DNA of 64,000 nucleotides from Acidobacteriota bacterium (GCA_040756905.1 JBFLYD010000069.1:10560-74559); one strand, 5' to 3'. Positions 7,475-40,522 are shown, counted from the first letter of the stretch. Notes: generated by a model not told the origin, from the sequence alone. Numbers and translations: made by a program.

Positions 7475-8671
7475 TCAGAATTGAACATCAGTAAGTCTTT
7501 TTTCGATTACTCTTTCCATTCTGCTTATTATCCTATCATCTTCAACATTTCTGATTAATGAATCATAAAATCCTCTTATCAGAAGTTTCTTAGCTTCTCT
7601 TTTTTCCAATCCACGAGTTATCATATAAAATACTTTCTGGAAATTCAATGGAGCTACTGAAGCCCCATGGGATGCCTGACAATCATCCTCTTCAATCCAT
7701 AAAGATGGAATTGCATCTGCTTTTGCTTTTTCCCCTAAAAGGAGGATATCACCTTTCTGAGAAACTTTAGATTTCCTTGCCCCCTTTTTTATATGGGCAT
7801 TTGCTCGATAAATCGCCATTGATTCATCAAAAATTGAACCCTTTACTCTTATCGAACTCTCCGTTCCAGGCCCTGAATGAATTGCTTCATAGAGATGGTC
7901 AATTTTCTGATTTTGCTTACTGATAAACATTGAAGTAAGGTTGGCTTTTGAATTTGTACCATTCAAATTGCTCTGAACGTTTATTGAGGAAATTTCTGAG
8001 CCAATTTCTTCCAGATTCCATAAAATACTTGAGTTATTTCCAAGAAAAGATTTTCCATAAAATACATTAAGATATTTTTCTCCTAAGTTCTGTATATGAA
8101 TTAATTTAGCTTTAGCTCCTTCATCAAGAAAAACAACTGTTAAAGAGTTTCTAAAGCCTGTTTTATTACTATTCCTTGCTCTACTTTCATCAAGATAAAC
8201 AAACTCACTGTTTTTCTTTCCTATTATCAGATTAAAAGAAAAAATGTCCGAATCGGCTCTTGTACATGAAAAAATTGGTTCTTTTAACTTTGAACTTTCA
8301 GGGACAAATAAAAAATTTCCTGATCTCCACAGAAGCCAGAGTAAAGACATCAATTTTTTTTCCTGGTCATGAATTTCTATCTTCTCAATGGATTCTTTTA
8401 CTAAATCAGGATAATTTTTCAGAGCATCGGAAATATCAGTAAAAATAAATGACTCTGTTGATGAAGATTTTCTTTTTATAAAAAATCCCGGCTTGGTTAA
8501 GTTGACAAAATCAATTTTAAGTCCATTCCAAAAATTCAAATCTAACTTTAATCTTTTCCATACAGGAAAATTCGACTCCTGAAAAATCTTAAGAGCATTT
8601 TCTCTTTTTTCCCTTAACCACTCAGGATTACCCTTCCATATTTTCTCAAGGATCTCTTGCTCTATTTTCAT
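7475..8671 (-). CDS. sufD: Fe-S cluster assembly protein SufD
   Basis: C-terminal SufBD-type beta-helix region (MITRGLEKREAKKLLIRGF); position between sufB and sufS. Confidence 0.75.
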   Translation of the reverse strand: MKIEQEILEKIWKGNPEWLREKRENALKIFQESNFPVWKRLKLDLNFWNGLKIDFVNLTKPGFFIKRKSSSTESFIFTDISDALKNYPDLVKESIEKIEIHDQEKKLMSLLWLLWRSGNFLFVPESSKLKEPIFSCTRADSDIFSFNLIIGKKNSEFVYLDESRARNSNKTGFRNSLTVVFLDEGAKAKLIHIQNLGEKYLNVFYGKSFLGNNSSILWNLEEIGSEISSINVQSNLNGTNSKANLTSMFISKQNQKIDHLYEAIHSGPGTESSIRVKGSIFDESMAIYRANAHIKKGARKSKVSQKGDILLLGEKAKADAIPSLWIEEDDCQASHGASVAPLNFQKVFYMITRGLEKREAKKLLIRGFYDSLIRNVEDDRIISRMERVIEKRLTDVQF

Positions 8672-8677
8672 CTCAAG

Positions 8678-8866
8678 CTATTGTGCTGTCTCATAAATAT
8701 CTTCAATTACAAACAACTTCCTCTGAAGCACCATGAAGGGGCATGGGGAAGGAACTTCCCCATGTCTGGGGTGTGCTTAGCGAAGCGTCTAAGGAGATCT
8801 TTCTCCCATAGGGAAAGTGTCGTGTCACAATAGAATAATGAAAGACATTTAGGTGACACGACACTA
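8678..8866 (-). repeat. Copy A of a ~180-nt GC-rich structured repeat (candidate structured RNA or MITE), intercistronic between sufB and sufD
   Basis: Minus-sense sequence starts 3 nt after the sufB stop and ends 6 nt before the sufD ATG. It aligns along its length with 33517-33692 (+). Shared blocks include TAGTGTC..GTGACA..GACACTTTCCCTATGGG, GCTaAGCACnCCCCAGACATGGGGAAGT and AAGATATTTATGnGACAGCACAnTAG. Confidence 0.55.
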
Positions 8867-8868
8867 TT

Positions 8869-10269
8869 TCAACCAACAGCTCCTTCCATTTCAAGCTGGA
8901 TAAGTCTGTTCAATTCCACTGCATATTCCATAGGTAGCTCTCTTGCCACAGGTTCGATGAATCCTCTCACTACTAAAGCTGTGGCCTCTGCTTCCGAAAG
9001 CCCCCGACTCATAAGATAAAAAATCTTTTCCTCGCTTATTTTTCCAGCTGTTGCTTCATGAACAACTTCAACATTATCGGTGTGAATTTCGAGGATTGGA
9101 ATTGTGTCTGCTTTTGACTTTTCATCAAGGATAAGCCCCTGACAGCTTACACTACATTTTGAATTCTCAGCTCCCTCAACAATTTTAACAAGCCCTCTGT
9201 ATGTGGAAACGCCTCCATCTTTACTTATACTCTTGGAAACAACCACAGAACTTGTGCGGGGGGCTAAATGAATAACTTTTGCCCCTGTATCTTTTCTCTG
9301 GCCTTCTCCAGCAAATGCAATATTAAGATGCTCTGCTTTTGCTCCTCTGCCAACAAGAACTGATCCGGGGTATAGCATTGTAATACCACTTCCCAGAGAG
9401 CCACCCACCCATTCAATAATCCCATCTTTTCCAACAATTGCTCTTTTTGTGTTCAGATTATAAACATCCCTGCTCCAGTTCTGAATCGTTGTATATCTTG
9501 CTCTTGCATCCTCCTTTACAAATATTTCAACAACTGCTGAATGGAGAGATGAAAGACTGTAAAAAGGTGCTGTGCATCCCTCTATATAATGGACATAGCT
9601 TCCTTTTTCAGCAATAATCAAGGTATGCTCAAACTGACCACTCTGGGCAGCATTCATCCTGAAATAACTCTGAAGAGGAAAAGGAACATTAACTCCTTCT
9701 GGAACATACACAAAACTCCCTCCACTCCATACTGCTCCATGAAGGGCGGCAAATTTATTATCTGTATCTGGAACACATTTTGTCATAAAATATTCTTTTA
9801 CAATTTCAGGATAATTTTTCACTGCAGTATCCATGTCGCAAAAAATTACCCCTTTATTTTCTAAATGAGTTCTCAAGCTTTCATAAACTGCTTCTGATTC
9901 ATATTGAGCTACAACTCCTGCTAAAAACTTCCTCTCAGCTTCAGGAATTCCAAGTTTTTCATAGGTTCTCCTTATGTTCTCAGGAACATCCTCCCAGCTC
10001 CTCGCTTTTATTTCACCTGGTCTTATGTAAAAAGTAATATCATCAAAATTAAGACCTGATAAATCAGGGCCAAAATTTGGCATTGGCTTTTTTATGAATA
10101 TCTCATAAGCTCTCAATCTCTTTTCTCTCATCCAATCTGGTTCATTTTTTATATATGAGATTTCCTCTATTATCTCTCTGGATAAGCCTTTTTTTGCCCT
10201 GTAAGAATATTCTTCAGGATTTGGTATATCAATAAATTTTTTCCCTATCTCAAATATTTTTTTATTCAT
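8869..10269 (-). CDS. sufB: Fe-S cluster assembly protein SufB
   Basis: 466 aa with characteristic SufB motifs (CTAPFYS..LHSAVVEI, FAGEGQ, GAKVIHLAP). Confidence 0.9.
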   Translation of the reverse strand: MNKKIFEIGKKFIDIPNPEEYSYRAKKGLSREIIEEISYIKNEPDWMREKRLRAYEIFIKKPMPNFGPDLSGLNFDDITFYIRPGEIKARSWEDVPENIRRTYEKLGIPEAERKFLAGVVAQYESEAVYESLRTHLENKGVIFCDMDTAVKNYPEIVKEYFMTKCVPDTDNKFAALHGAVWSGGSFVYVPEGVNVPFPLQSYFRMNAAQSGQFEHTLIIAEKGSYVHYIEGCTAPFYSLSSLHSAVVEIFVKEDARARYTTIQNWSRDVYNLNTKRAIVGKDGIIEWVGGSLGSGITMLYPGSVLVGRGAKAEHLNIAFAGEGQRKDTGAKVIHLAPRTSSVVVSKSISKDGGVSTYRGLVKIVEGAENSKCSVSCQGLILDEKSKADTIPILEIHTDNVEVVHEATAGKISEEKIFYLMSRGLSEAEATALVVRGFIEPVARELPMEYAVELNRLIQLEMEGAVG

Positions 10270-32730: not shown

Positions 32731-32805
32731 GGTTTGAGCTCCACCCTGAAACTTAAATATTTGACAACAGAATAAAAAAATTGCTAATTTTTAGAGGATA
32801 ATGTT

Positions 32806-32877
32806 GGGCGGTTAGCTCAGCGGTAGAGCATCTGTTTTACACGCAGGGGGTCAGAGGTTCGAATCCTCTACCGCCCA
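32806..32877 (+). tRNA. tRNA-Val (anticodon TAC)
   Basis: Manual cloverleaf: acceptor GGGCGGT/ACCGCCC, D-arm GCTC..GAGC, anticodon loop TTTACAC, T-arm AGAGG-TTCGAAT-CCTCT; CCA not encoded. Confidence 0.85.
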
Positions 32878-32931
32878 TTCAAAATATTATTAATTGAAAA
32901 AATAAAAAAAATGATATAATAATAAGATAAA

Positions 32932-33009
32932 GGGGTCGTAGTTCAGATTGGATAGAACGCCGGCCTGTCACGCCGGAGGTCGCGGGTTCAAGTCCCGTCG
33001 GCCCCGCCA
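32932..33009 (+). tRNA. tRNA-Asp (anticodon GTC)
   Basis: Acceptor GGGGTCG/CGGCCCC, anticodon loop CTGTCAC, T-arm GCGGG-TTCAAGT-CCCGT, discriminator G with encoded CCA. Confidence 0.85.
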
Positions 33010-33171: not shown

Positions 33172-33444
33172 CTATTCTTTCGGAGGAGGGAATAGAACAT
33201 GCAAAACTAAGATTAATGAAGCGGAGCCAAGGATTGCAGGAATTATGTAAACATCCCATAATTTAATCCACCAATGCTCGAGAATCCATCCCAGCCAGGC
33301 TCCGAACCATCCCACACAAACTTCAGCAATAAATCCGATTATTCCCTTTCCAATTTTGATTTTCAACAAAAAGAACATTATCACTGAAACTATAACACTG
33401 ATGATAAATAAAAAGAGAGCTGCCAAAAAATCCATTCCAATCAT
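33172..33444 (-). CDS. Small (90 aa) multi-TM membrane protein
   Basis: Three predicted helices with a Gly/Trp-rich GxxxG-like region; function unknown. Confidence 0.4.
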   Translation of the reverse strand: MIGMDFLAALFLFIISVIVSVIMFFLLKIKIGKGIIGFIAEVCVGWFGAWLGWILEHWWIKLWDVYIIPAILGSASLILVLHVLFPPPKE

Positions 33445-33516
33445 TTTAATTTACCTCCTTATTATTTTTTTCTTTCTAATTTAAAGATAATTCCTCATTT
33501 TAGAAAAGTCAATACC

Positions 33517-33692
33517 TAGTGTCATCTCACTTAAATGCCTTTTGTTATATTATTGTGATATGACACTTTCCCTATGGGGGCAAGCCCCCTTACACACTTT
33601 GCTGAGCACCCCCCAGACATGGGGAAGTGACCTTCAGTGTGCTTAAGGAGAAATTCTTTGCCTGTAAAGATATTTATGGGACAGCACACTAG
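33517..33692 (+). repeat. Copy B of the ~180-nt GC-rich structured repeat (see 8678-8866), about 146 nt upstream of the D-aminoacylase-carAB operon
   Basis: Roughly 75% identical to the reverse complement of 8678-8866, with compensatory substitutions in two hairpins; sense orientation relative to the downstream gene. Confidence 0.55.
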
Positions 33693-33838: not shown

Positions 33839-35518
33839 TTGAAAAAAATTTACAAGGTAATTGGATTTTATGTTTTATTTTTTGGATTAAATCTTCTATT
33901 GCTTTCATATGAGTTTGACATAATTATCAAAAATGGAAGAATAATCGATGGAACAGGAAACCCATGGTTCTATGGAGATGTTGGGGTAAAAGATGGGAAA
34001 ATTGTGTTCGTCGGAAAAACTGGAAATGGAAATGCAAAAAAAGTCATAGAATCCAGGAGTCTGGTAGTAGCACCTGGATTTATCGATGTTCTTGACCAGT
34101 CAGATTTTACGATTCTCGTTGATGGCAATGCAGAAAGCAAAATAAGGCAGGGAGTGACAACTTTAATTTATGGAGAAGGAGGTTCAGCTGCGCCCCTTAC
34201 TGATTTCATAAAAAATGAATGGAAAAGAGAGGCTGAGCATTATGGTATTACTCTCGATTGGACAACTCTTAAAGAGTATTATGAAAAATTAATGAAAGGA
34301 GGGATCTCAGTTAACATTGCCACATATGTAGGTGCTGCTCAAGTAAGAATGGCAGTTATAGGTGCTGAGAATAGAGAACCTACTCATGATGAGCTGGAAA
34401 GAATGAAACAATTAGTAGCACAGGCAATGGAAGATGGAGCAGTTGGAATATCAAGCGCACTCATTTATCCGCCAGGTTCATTCGCAAAAACTGATGAATT
34501 GATTGAACTCTGTAAAGTTGTATCAAAATATGGAGGAATTTATGCAACCCATATAAGGAATGAAGGTGACAGGCAAGTTGAAGCATTAAAAGAAGCAATT
34601 GAAATAGGAATGAAGGCGAATTTGCCAGTTGAAATATTCCATTTTAAAGTTGCCGGAAAAGAAAACTGGGGCAACAGCAAAATTGCAATCTCTTTAATCG
34701 AAGAGGCAAGATCAAAAGGGTTGGATATCACAGCAGACCAGTATCCCTACATCGCCTCATCAACCAGCATAAACGCTACAGTTCCTCCCTGGGTTCATGA
34801 AGGCGGAACGGAAAAATATCTTTCGAGACTTCAAGATAAAGAATTAAGAAAAAAAATTAAGGATGAAATGTTACATAAGAAAGAAGGATGGGAAAACATG
34901 TATCTGGGTCCAGGTGGATGGGAGAACATTCTTATAGCATCTCTTAAACAGGAAAAAAATAAAATATACGAAGGAAAGAGTGTATCTGAGGCAGCTAAAA
35001 TCGCAAAGAAAGACCCATTTGAATTTGTGTTTGACCTGATAGTAGAAGAAAAAGGCTCTGTTGGGGCAATCTACTTTTCAATGGCAGAGAATGATGTGAA
35101 AGCAATTATGAAGACTCCATGGGTTATGATTGATTCTGACTGGTCCGCTCTAAGGCCCGATGGAATACTTGGTGAGGGAAAGCCTCATCCAAGAGCATAC
35201 GGAACTTTTCCAAGAGTTCTGGGAAAATATGTAAGGGAAGAAAAAATCTTAACTCTTGAGGATGCGATAAGAAAAATGACATCATTTCCAGCCCAAAGGT
35301 TCAAATTTAAGGATAGAGGTCTTATCTGGGAGGGAATGTCTGCGGACATAACTGTATTCAATCCAGAAACAGTAATCGATAAAGCTACTTTTCAAAATCC
35401 CCATCAATACCCTGAAGGAATTGAATATGTAATTGTTAATGGAATCTTGGTTATAGATAAAGGAAATCATACAGGAGCAAGGTCTGGAAAAATTCTTTAT
35501 GGTCCTGGTAAAAAGTAA
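33839..35518 (+). CDS. N-acyl-D-amino-acid deacylase (D-aminoacylase) family amidohydrolase with N-terminal signal/anchor
   Basis: TTG start 6 nt after GAGGAGG; FDIIIKNGRIIDGTGNPWFYGDVGVKDGKIVFVGK and downstream metal-binding HxH/amidohydrolase motifs; hydrophobic N-terminus. Stop lies 3 nt before the carA start. Confidence 0.7.
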   Translation: MKKIYKVIGFYVLFFGLNLLLLSYEFDIIIKNGRIIDGTGNPWFYGDVGVKDGKIVFVGKTGNGNAKKVIESRSLVVAPGFIDVLDQSDFTILVDGNAESKIRQGVTTLIYGEGGSAAPLTDFIKNEWKREAEHYGITLDWTTLKEYYEKLMKGGISVNIATYVGAAQVRMAVIGAENREPTHDELERMKQLVAQAMEDGAVGISSALIYPPGSFAKTDELIELCKVVSKYGGIYATHIRNEGDRQVEALKEAIEIGMKANLPVEIFHFKVAGKENWGNSKIAISLIEEARSKGLDITADQYPYIASSTSINATVPPWVHEGGTEKYLSRLQDKELRKKIKDEMLHKKEGWENMYLGPGGWENILIASLKQEKNKIYEGKSVSEAAKIAKKDPFEFVFDLIVEEKGSVGAIYFSMAENDVKAIMKTPWVMIDSDWSALRPDGILGEGKPHPRAYGTFPRVLGKYVREEKILTLEDAIRKMTSFPAQRFKFKDRGLIWEGMSADITVFNPETVIDKATFQNPHQYPEGIEYVIVNGILVIDKGNHTGARSGKILYGPGKK

Positions 35519-40035: not shown

Positions 40036-40380
40036 GGGGGCGAAAAGGACTCGACGAGGTATTGAAAGAATGGGAAGCATGTCAAGTTGCCGCCATGATT
40101 GTAAAAAGGGCGGAAAAAATTAAGTGCAGAAACACTGCCTGTTGCTGCCTAAGTGAATAGGCAACCGTCTCTTAAGCTTTTTCCTGCGGAGCTTTTGAGG
40201 CGTGATGAAGCAGGATAGTTCCTGAAAGAATGTTCTCTCTTTCAGGAGCAAATTTTAAGAAGAGCTGGTTTGAATATTTCCTGCTTTCTGGGATATTCAA
40301 ACGAGATTAAAAGAAAGCTAAACATGTAGATGCCCGTTACTAAATGCTTTCGGACGTGGGTTCGAATCCCACCGCCTCCA
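40036..40380 (+). ncRNA. ssrA: tmRNA (ssrA, transfer-messenger RNA)
   Basis: 5-prime GGGGGCGAAAAGGACTCGACGAGG (tRNA-like acceptor/D-analog) and 3-prime GGACGTGGGTTCGAATCCCACCGCCTCCA (T-arm plus acceptor). 7-bp acceptor stem carries the G3-U70 Ala identity pair. Internal tag ORF ...GCAGAAACACTGCCTGTTGCTGCCTAA (AETLPVAA stop). Confidence 0.85.
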
Positions 40381-40522
40381 TTTTTATAATAAAATGTACA
40401 AAAAAGTAGAAAATTTAACAGAAAGTGATAAAGCCTATATTGCAGGTATAATGATTTGAAAAGTTATAAAAAACAACGTGCAAAATTAGTAGTAGAAAAA
40501 TATAAAGAACTAACCCCAAGAA

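Follow-up and report, generated by a model that had tools for sequence, protein, structure and literature searches.

The window, by which we mean the whole 64-kb stretch of DNA that was analysed, belongs to a 74,601-bp contig of an Acidobacteriota MAG (proteins MEW6457395 onward, locus-tag prefix AB1410_). It contains a suf neighbourhood made up of an ArsR-type HTH gene, sufC, sufB, sufD, sufS, and a NifU-like sufU, with the Pfam domain SUFBD_core in both SufB and SufD; the best SufB homologue is merely 77% identical, and one named relative is ‘Candidatus Aminicenantia’. Between sufB and sufD lies a 197-nt spacer that consists almost entirely of one copy of a repeated element (copy A), with 1 nt to spare next to sufB and 6 nt next to sufD. 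A second copy (copy B) lies between a yeaQ-like gene (33172–33444, minus strand) and an amidohydrolase gene (33839–35518, plus strand).

7475–8671, minus strand: sufD (ATG 8669–8671), intact, 398 aa, the gene that follows copy A on the suf mRNA, with the same start position as in relatives
8678–8867, plus strand: copy A, 190 nt with both flanking CTAT 4-mers; net insertion 186 nt, or 62 codons
8869–10269, minus strand: sufB (stop TGA 8871–8869), the gene that precedes copy A on the suf mRNA
33516–33692, minus strand: copy B, 177 nt, with CTAG on either flank and deletions of 12 nt and 1 nt, in a divergent intergenic region

The plus strand of copy A is the one on which other copies have their single open frame, and the suf mRNA has the sequence of the minus strand. 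By blastn the two copies match over 189 nt with 74.6% identity (E 5e-32), whereas column identity is 83% in a MAFFT alignment and 79% over 177 aligned columns in our own alignment, in which the indels measure 12 nt and 1 nt. Because other copies have the A form, it is B that has lost the 12 nt, not A that has gained them. The A/B pair is the sole significant long repeat within the window, and no further copies or fragments of the element were found there. An initial annotation of this DNA had described a structured repeat with a second, inverted copy, which is real and was placed correctly to within 1 nt. Its statements that the repeat fills the spacer and ends 6 nt before the sufD ATG also hold, and the gap after the sufB stop is 1 nt. 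The label ‘GC-rich’ is apt relative to the window only (copies: 41–44% GC; window: 32.5%), and the remark that both copies are sense to the downstream gene is uninformative, given that copy B is in a divergent intergenic region; the suf genes are on the minus strand.

Other features of the window were recorded alongside the element. A 35-nt direct repeat (8392–8426 and 9792–9826, 86% identity) has one unit each in sufD and sufB; it reflects the paralogy of SufB and SufD (SUFBD_core), not a mobile repeat. A tmRNA is encoded at 40036–40383 (plus strand, 171.9 bits, tag peptide AETLPVAA), and tRNA-Val(TAC) and tRNA-Asp(GTC) are found at 32805–32878 and 32932–33009 (plus strand), with copy B ~500 nt downstream of the pair.

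Orthologous sites with and without the element

The closest suf operons available (L012, L013, and L014) have the order HTH_5-sufC-sufB-sufD-sufS-sufU, as in the window, and encode SufB proteins that are 76–77% identical. In all three, sufB and sufD overlap by 4 nt (GGATGA), with the Shine-Dalgarno (SD)-like sequence GGAAGGAG inside the end of sufB. This ancestral SD-like GGAAGGAG for sufD is also present in the 3′ end of the window sufB, and after the same sufB tail the window junction reads TGA-A-[ATAG...element...ATAG]-CTTGAG-ATG, where the SufD N-terminus again aligns with those of the relatives. Because sufB and sufD overlap by ATGA in the closest suf operons, the 197-nt spacer of the window is an insertion, and nothing at the sufB-sufD position is conserved in the three related operons. 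The initial annotation had suggested that homologous suf operons lacking the insert would favour a MITE, and this is the state found in L012, L013, and L014.

The bases after the sufB stop (TTGAAATAG, 8860–8872) resemble the start of sufD (ATGAAAATAG, 8660–8671) on the minus strand. A longer target duplication made up of TTGAAATAG and ATGAAAATAG was considered and dropped, being irreconcilable with the boundaries given by copy B and by a copy on the metagenome contig L011 described below. Their likeness could be a relic of junction duplication or repair at insertion, or chance in AT-rich DNA.

A second pair of filled and empty sites is provided by P0145 (836 aa, AB1410_08195), a protein of the same MAG with one internal copy. 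An exhaustive search gave 1,863 homologues, nearly all of which match two stretches flanking residues ~267–330. Six aligned homologues (39–50% identity) are all without exactly the 62 residues VCCPINLF...SDMTI, which follow a conserved MPxxP motif and precede the next domain; after them the frame runs on into the conserved catalytic domain. The AlphaFold2 model, obtained from a shallow alignment of seven sequences and used as supporting evidence only, consists of a beta-sandwich domain, the insert, and an (alpha/alpha)-barrel-like domain, with both domains confident and the insert at a pLDDT of about 26–33. The insert thus lies in an interdomain linker that is predicted to be disordered.

Dispersed copies, size variants, and ends

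Gene callers often run ORFs through repeats, so the search for further copies was made at the protein level, using joined six-frame translations of A and B against the predicted-protein database. Matches were obtained, in a single frame and orientation, to three proteins of the MAG (P0143, P0144, and P0145) and to P0146 from a Logan assembly; a peptide profile built from those matches added P0147, P0148, and P0149 in a second search. There are at least 11 copies including the two in the window, with at least nine more on four other contigs of the MAG (the five copy-bearing contigs measure 74.6, 45.3, 151.9, 55.3, and 17.8 kb). Because these nine were found only where an annotated ORF overlaps the repeat, the true copy number is probably much higher. 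The DNA is known for three copies (A, B, and L011), and the others are known as translated peptides only.

The genic copies lie in diverse contexts. P0143 (1028 aa, GHL6/GHL10-like) has one copy just after the signal peptide, containing a nested extra segment, and a second near residue 560. In the RND adaptor P0144, one copy is read into each end of the ORF; these two are really intergenic and flank the gene. P0147, P0148, and P0149 are small ‘hypothetical proteins’ that are largely repeat. The host proteins are mutually unrelated (GH116-like, GHL10-like, and TPR/DUF5107). P0147 and P0149 (contigs of 55.3 and 17.8 kb) have in common a 57-residue N-terminal part (MSEYVFRTLL...ISVLRKAPM) that replaces the usual left half, and at residues ~57–115 of P0143 a nested segment of ~57 residues occurs at the same point, in the central hairpin. 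These peptide segments suggest either an additional repeat module or a parent form of greater length.

A single reading frame out of six is open, and the longest frame, ~62 codons, has no relation to a transposase. This common frame is interrupted by one stop in copy A, and by a frameshift and a stop in copy B. The N-terminal copy of P0144 has AQRSVQGE in place of the CSAKRLRR of the others, which corresponds to a different frame of the same DNA. From these readings, we take the conservation to be at the nucleotide level. The deposited annotation extends or creates ORFs through the repeat in P0143, P0144, and P0147–P0149, and in P0144, for example, a lipoprotein-type signal peptide starts at residue ~69, downstream of the annotated start; the gene models of these five proteins probably need correction.

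Outside the MAG, the element was found on L011, a Logan metagenome contig unrelated to the MAG (8,050 bp, 37.8% GC). At 146–257 it carries a 112-nt copy (nhmmer E 7e-28) that has lost the central ~75 nt, so that its left arm and right hairpin are contiguous, and at 1789–1829 a 41-nt fragment of the right arm. Both pieces are inside the P0146 ORF, where the copy supplies 36 codons with 0 stops; the 41-nt fragment is in-frame (NNERHLSDTTLG) in the TPR region and looks like the remnant of an older insertion. The L011 pieces imply that the family has short, standard, and longer variants, which is usual for MITE families (PMC10969869). A DNA pattern scan of genome and metagenome contigs (CCATGTCTGGGG-N20-50-ATAGGGAAAG) gave seven matches, all of them chance matches in unrelated DNA. 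No element was found in viral contigs by the pattern scan or in plasmids by blastn. Contigs L008–L010, which encode proteins ≥90% identical to the yeaQ-like protein, are not syntenic and carry no copy.

The limits of the element are marked by short inverted ends and flanking 4-mers:

8682–8690, plus strand: left terminal inverted repeat TGTGCTGTC, preceded by CTAT at 8678–8681
8855–8863, plus strand: right terminal inverted repeat GACACGACA, followed by CTAT at 8864–8867

The inverted repeat is imperfect, with TGTGCTGTC matching TGTCGTGTC, the reverse complement of the right end, at 7/9 positions in A and L011. The three DNA copies cease to be homologous at the flanking 4-mers (left: C(T/C)A(G/T) followed by TGTGCTG; right: GACA followed by CTA(G/T)): copy A has CTAT/CTAT, copy B has CTAG/CTAG, and L011 has CCAG/CTAG. 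The ends of L011 and those inferred for P0145 from the peptide match imperfectly. As CTAG is palindromic, copy A alone argues for a direct duplication: its CTAT...CTAT is suggestive of a 4-bp target duplication, and a TA duplication in a preferred CTAG-like target would fit as well. The CTAG-like 4-mers could instead be part of the element. The net insertion measures 186 nt in A; in L011 it is 108 nt (36 codons), both lengths being multiples of 3, and in P0145 it is 62 residues; the intergenic, decayed copy B has a net length of 173 nt.

Hairpins, compensatory changes, and competing readings

Three sets of hairpins were delimited in copy A:

8742–8771: central G/C hairpins, a 10-bp stem CATGGGGAAG..CTTCCCCATG (8742–8764) that overlaps CCCCATGTCTGGGG (8758–8771)
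8793–8806: H2, a 5-bp stem, GGAGA-TCTT-TCTCC in A and GGGGG-CTTG-CCCCC in B, with two compensatory pairs
8817–8864: H1, a 12-bp stem GTGTCGTGTCAC / GTGACACGACAC (arms 8817–8828 and 8853–8864) with a 24-nt loop

All hairpins quoted in the initial annotation (H1, H2, and CCCCATGTCTGGGG) are present. The CCCCATGTCTGGGG hairpin is common to A and B, and the 5′ half of the central hairpins is deleted in B. Over 27 stem pairs there are eight substitutions, all falling within four double changes. Three are compensatory from A to B (one G:C to A:T in H1, two A:T to G:C in H2), and the fourth breaks an H1 pair, a G:C that is a mismatch in B. At least three compensatory pairs arose in ~1.2% of the trials of a permutation test. 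The compensatory changes that had been reported are thus genuine; the broken H1 pair had gone unmentioned. Hairpin-preserving substitutions at this level (P ~0.01) show some structural constraint, which could in principle act at the RNA level.

The initial annotation went further and took covariation to argue for selection on RNA structure, a conclusion that the folding data do not bear out. Copy A folds with –63.4 kcal/mol on the suf mRNA strand (z –5.0) and –66.8 kcal/mol on the other (z –4.7), and the two strands of copy B with –62.6 and –61.0 kcal/mol (z –4.1 and –3.3), so that the strands of each copy fold about equally well. In RNAalifold runs on the three DNA copies (A, B, and L011), the covariation term was unfavourable in either orientation, with two compensatory pairs against 4–6 broken ones and a similar number of wobble-compatible changes on each strand. 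The structure is real, and nothing indicates that it acts as RNA rather than DNA. Recognition of DNA hairpins at a transposon end, or palindrome-templated correction, would be just as likely to yield substitutions that keep the hairpins. Codons of the peptide copies extend the H1 comparison. Val...Thr (G:C) occurs in copy A, in the first copies of P0144 and P0143 (P0144a and P0143a), and in L011; Met...Met (A:T) occurs in P0143 (copy b) and P0147; and Val...Met in P0145 implies a G:T pair. Read back from codons in this way, the H1 covariation may reflect two subfamilies, not repeated independent events.

Known RNA families offered no match to the repeat at gathering score. Over the whole window, Rfam at gathering thresholds returned just the tmRNA and the two tRNAs and no family on the element, so that a hit to a known family, which the initial annotation had named as a result that would count against its reading, did not materialise. 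A permissive scan of 197 nt gave a sub-threshold match of copy A to RF02937 (Clostridiales-2 RNA; 8729–8798, plus strand, 24.8 bits against a gathering score of 58.6, E 5e-4), covering a G/C hairpin followed by GUGCU.AG...GUC.AAGG. The score is far below gathering, and the match needs the hairpin that is absent from B; in the permissive scan, copy B was without a Clostridiales-2 match at E ≤10, even though it shares the GGGUGCUCAG stretch of the RF02937 consensus. A literature search on the Clostridiales-2 motif returned nothing relevant. Membership in RF02937 was rejected because the match is sub-threshold and confined to copy A, and we treat it as a chance or remote resemblance.

Such DNA hairpins could serve mobility through single-stranded DNA, with the element as an IS200/IS605-type derivative (PATE) whose subterminal hairpins are recognised by a Y1 transposase (TnpA) and which might double as an omega RNA-like scaffold for TnpB or IscB. 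The strong subterminal H1, 4 nt from one end, speaks for such an arrangement, the compensatory changes fit recognition of a DNA hairpin, and the same tetranucleotide stands beside the left end and at the right end. We nevertheless consider this reading unlikely, as recognisable terminal inverted repeats are present, a compact hairpin is found at the right end only, no tnpA or tnpB adjoins either window copy, and the IscB/TnpB-associated RNAs in Rfam gave no match at any threshold.

A function within the suf mRNA, as a processing site, a stabiliser, or a device setting the SufB:SufD ratio, would account for a co-transcribed element in a tight operon with a stable fold on the mRNA strand (–63 kcal/mol, z –5.0) and three compensatory changes that keep its hairpins, and Correia and ERIC elements do affect mRNA processing (PMC10969869). 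It is quite improbable that the element is selected for such a cis-acting role: it is missing from the closest suf operons with their 4-nt sufB/sufD overlap, the same sequence recurs at ≥10 unrelated places, including the inside of ORFs and a divergent promoter region, neither folding nor wobble pairs favour one strand, and a promoter/terminator scan found no promoter-like or terminator-like site in copy A.

The open frame raises the prospect of a mobile protein-coding cassette, in which the 62-residue peptide (VCCPINIF..KHTEGVWGRGFPMSGGCSAKRLRR..HRE.V.SQ.NN.RYLSDTTLG) is selected as a protein module. In its favour, every genic copy keeps one frame open, a Cys/His pattern is present in the peptide, and the N-terminal copy of P0143 stays open for ~123 codons in a genome of 32% GC. 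We find this hardly credible, since the intergenic copies have stops and frameshifts in that frame, the P0144 copy shifts frame locally while keeping the DNA sequence, disorder is predicted for the insert, the host proteins have no relationship to one another, and the short L011 copy lacks the whole central part. Equally far-fetched, in our estimate, is that the element is excised or bypassed in transcripts as a very small bacterial intervening sequence, or that its hairpins were co-opted as a genome-wide post-transcriptional signal that in suf sets the SufB:SufD ratio. An intervening sequence removed from mRNA by self-splicing or by a host enzyme, restoring the host genes, would explain a compact conserved structure inside otherwise intact genes and can be given next to no weight, because the genic copies are open, in-frame, and a multiple of 3 (needless if spliced out), a group I or group II intron core would not fit into 112–190 nt, Rfam gave no ribozyme or intron match, and the suf mRNA orientation is opposite to that in the ORFs.

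A probable mobile palindromic repeat and its possible consequences

On the comparisons above, the element is very likely a lineage-specific, non-autonomous mobile repeat, MITE-like or a ‘palindromic element’. Of the defining features of a MITE in the generic sense that were tested or considered, five are present, including small size (DNA copies of 112–190 nt, with no room for a transposase gene), dispersed copies, terminal inverted repeats, and filled versus empty orthologous sites. As in Rickettsia palindromic elements (RPE), copies are inserted in-frame in protein genes with an open frame through the element (P0145 and L011/P0146). Counted against this reading is the shortness of the inverted repeats (7/9), and against recent mobility the ~20% divergence among copies. 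A miniature mobile element was one of the options listed in the initial annotation, next to a processing or stability element and a regulatory RNA, and it is the one strongly favoured by the dispersed copies, the size variants, the copy in another organism, the empty sites, and the inverted ends with CTAG-like 4-mers. The annotation had also named many copies with target-site duplications as the mark of a simple MITE; the copies are largely there, and the duplications are suggestive only. The mobile-repeat family is new, the kind of element is already known, and it is not a dedicated suf regulatory RNA.

In the arrangement that we propose, the unit is ~182 nt long, together with a duplicated or preferred CTAG-like 4-mer. 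Its terminal inverted repeats are short and imperfect, one end has a strong subterminal hairpin, and two or three G/C hairpins lie in the interior. It would be moved in trans by a transposase encoded elsewhere in the genome; no tnpA, tnpB, or other transposase-like gene adjoins either window copy, and the DNA that was covered showed neither a transposase nor an autonomous parent element sharing these ends. The TA-centred CTAG-like flanks and short inverted repeats would suit an IS5- or IS630-type DDE enzyme. The canonical insertion adds 62 codons with a stop-free frame, and in-phase genic copies would survive as additions of ~62 residues at tolerant sites, such as interdomain linkers or positions just after signal peptides, while other copies would persist between genes.

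Published examples include MITEs and RPE inserted in-frame, a Chunjie copy within an operon, and Correia elements that RNase III cleaves in mRNA (PMC10969869, PMC3184786). The RPE (Ogata et al. 2000) are repeats of ~100–150 nt that insert in-frame in unrelated genes (PMC10969869, PMC3184786). Like them, the present element is a small palindromic repeat (112–190 nt) dispersed in one lineage, both between genes and in-frame within them, with one open frame that adds a peptide segment at tolerated sites (here predicted). Unlike them, it resides in a free-living, uncultivated Acidobacteriota (Aminicenantia-like) MAG and has CTAG-like flanks on short inverted repeats. This likeness is claimed for behaviour only, and as the host lineage is unrelated to Rickettsia no membership is claimed. 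[quoted passage not shown] 2008) is 178–235 bp long and A+T-rich, with a stable fold, 21-bp terminal inverted repeats, and 9-bp direct repeats (PMC10969869, PMC3184786); the two share a stable fold, many full and partial copies, and one copy inside an operon that does not destroy its genes, whereas our element has 9-nt imperfect inverted repeats, at most a 4-nt (or TA) duplication, and G/C-rich hairpins. Correia (Neisseria) and ERIC (Enterobacteriaceae) are co-transcribed MITE-like repeats whose hairpins can be cut by RNase III or RNase E, altering expression (PMC10969869). Our element likewise is a MITE-like repeat co-transcribed with its neighbours, for which hairpin cleavage is a plausible side effect in suf; Correia elements differ in having ~26-bp inverted repeats, outward promoters, and an IHF site, against the absence of a promoter-like site in copy A. 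For all these systems, the resemblance that we claim is one of function, not of sequence-family membership.

At the suf locus, the element would have landed at the sufB/sufD junction, antisense to its open frame, leaving both genes intact, and it would be co-transcribed as a structured 190-nt spacer that replaces the ancestral 4-nt overlap. Ahead of the sufD ATG, nothing SD-like is left except GAG, which directly adjoins the start codon. The likeliest consequence, judged from this junction, would be loss of the ancestral translational coupling of sufB and sufD. By analogy with Correia and ERIC, the hairpins may also be sites at which the suf mRNA is cleaved or stabilised; such effects on suf expression would be side effects, not a selected function. 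Beside copy B, the end of the element contributes a –35-like ATGACA that lies 17 nt from a –10-like TAAAAT in the flank (33497–33525, minus strand), upstream of the yeaQ-like gene; matches to this hybrid promoter-like arrangement are no more frequent than in shuffled sequence.

These results indicate that an odd, structured 197-nt spacer in a tightly coupled Fe-S cluster operon is selfish DNA, not a riboswitch or sRNA. Repeats of this kind inflate and fuse ORF calls in MAGs, and they can mimic structured-RNA candidates in comparative screens. The most interesting aspect is the in-frame genic copies: with them, an Aminicenantia-like Acidobacteriota joins the short list of bacteria with in-frame palindromic repeats in enzyme genes, a phenomenon best known in Rickettsia.
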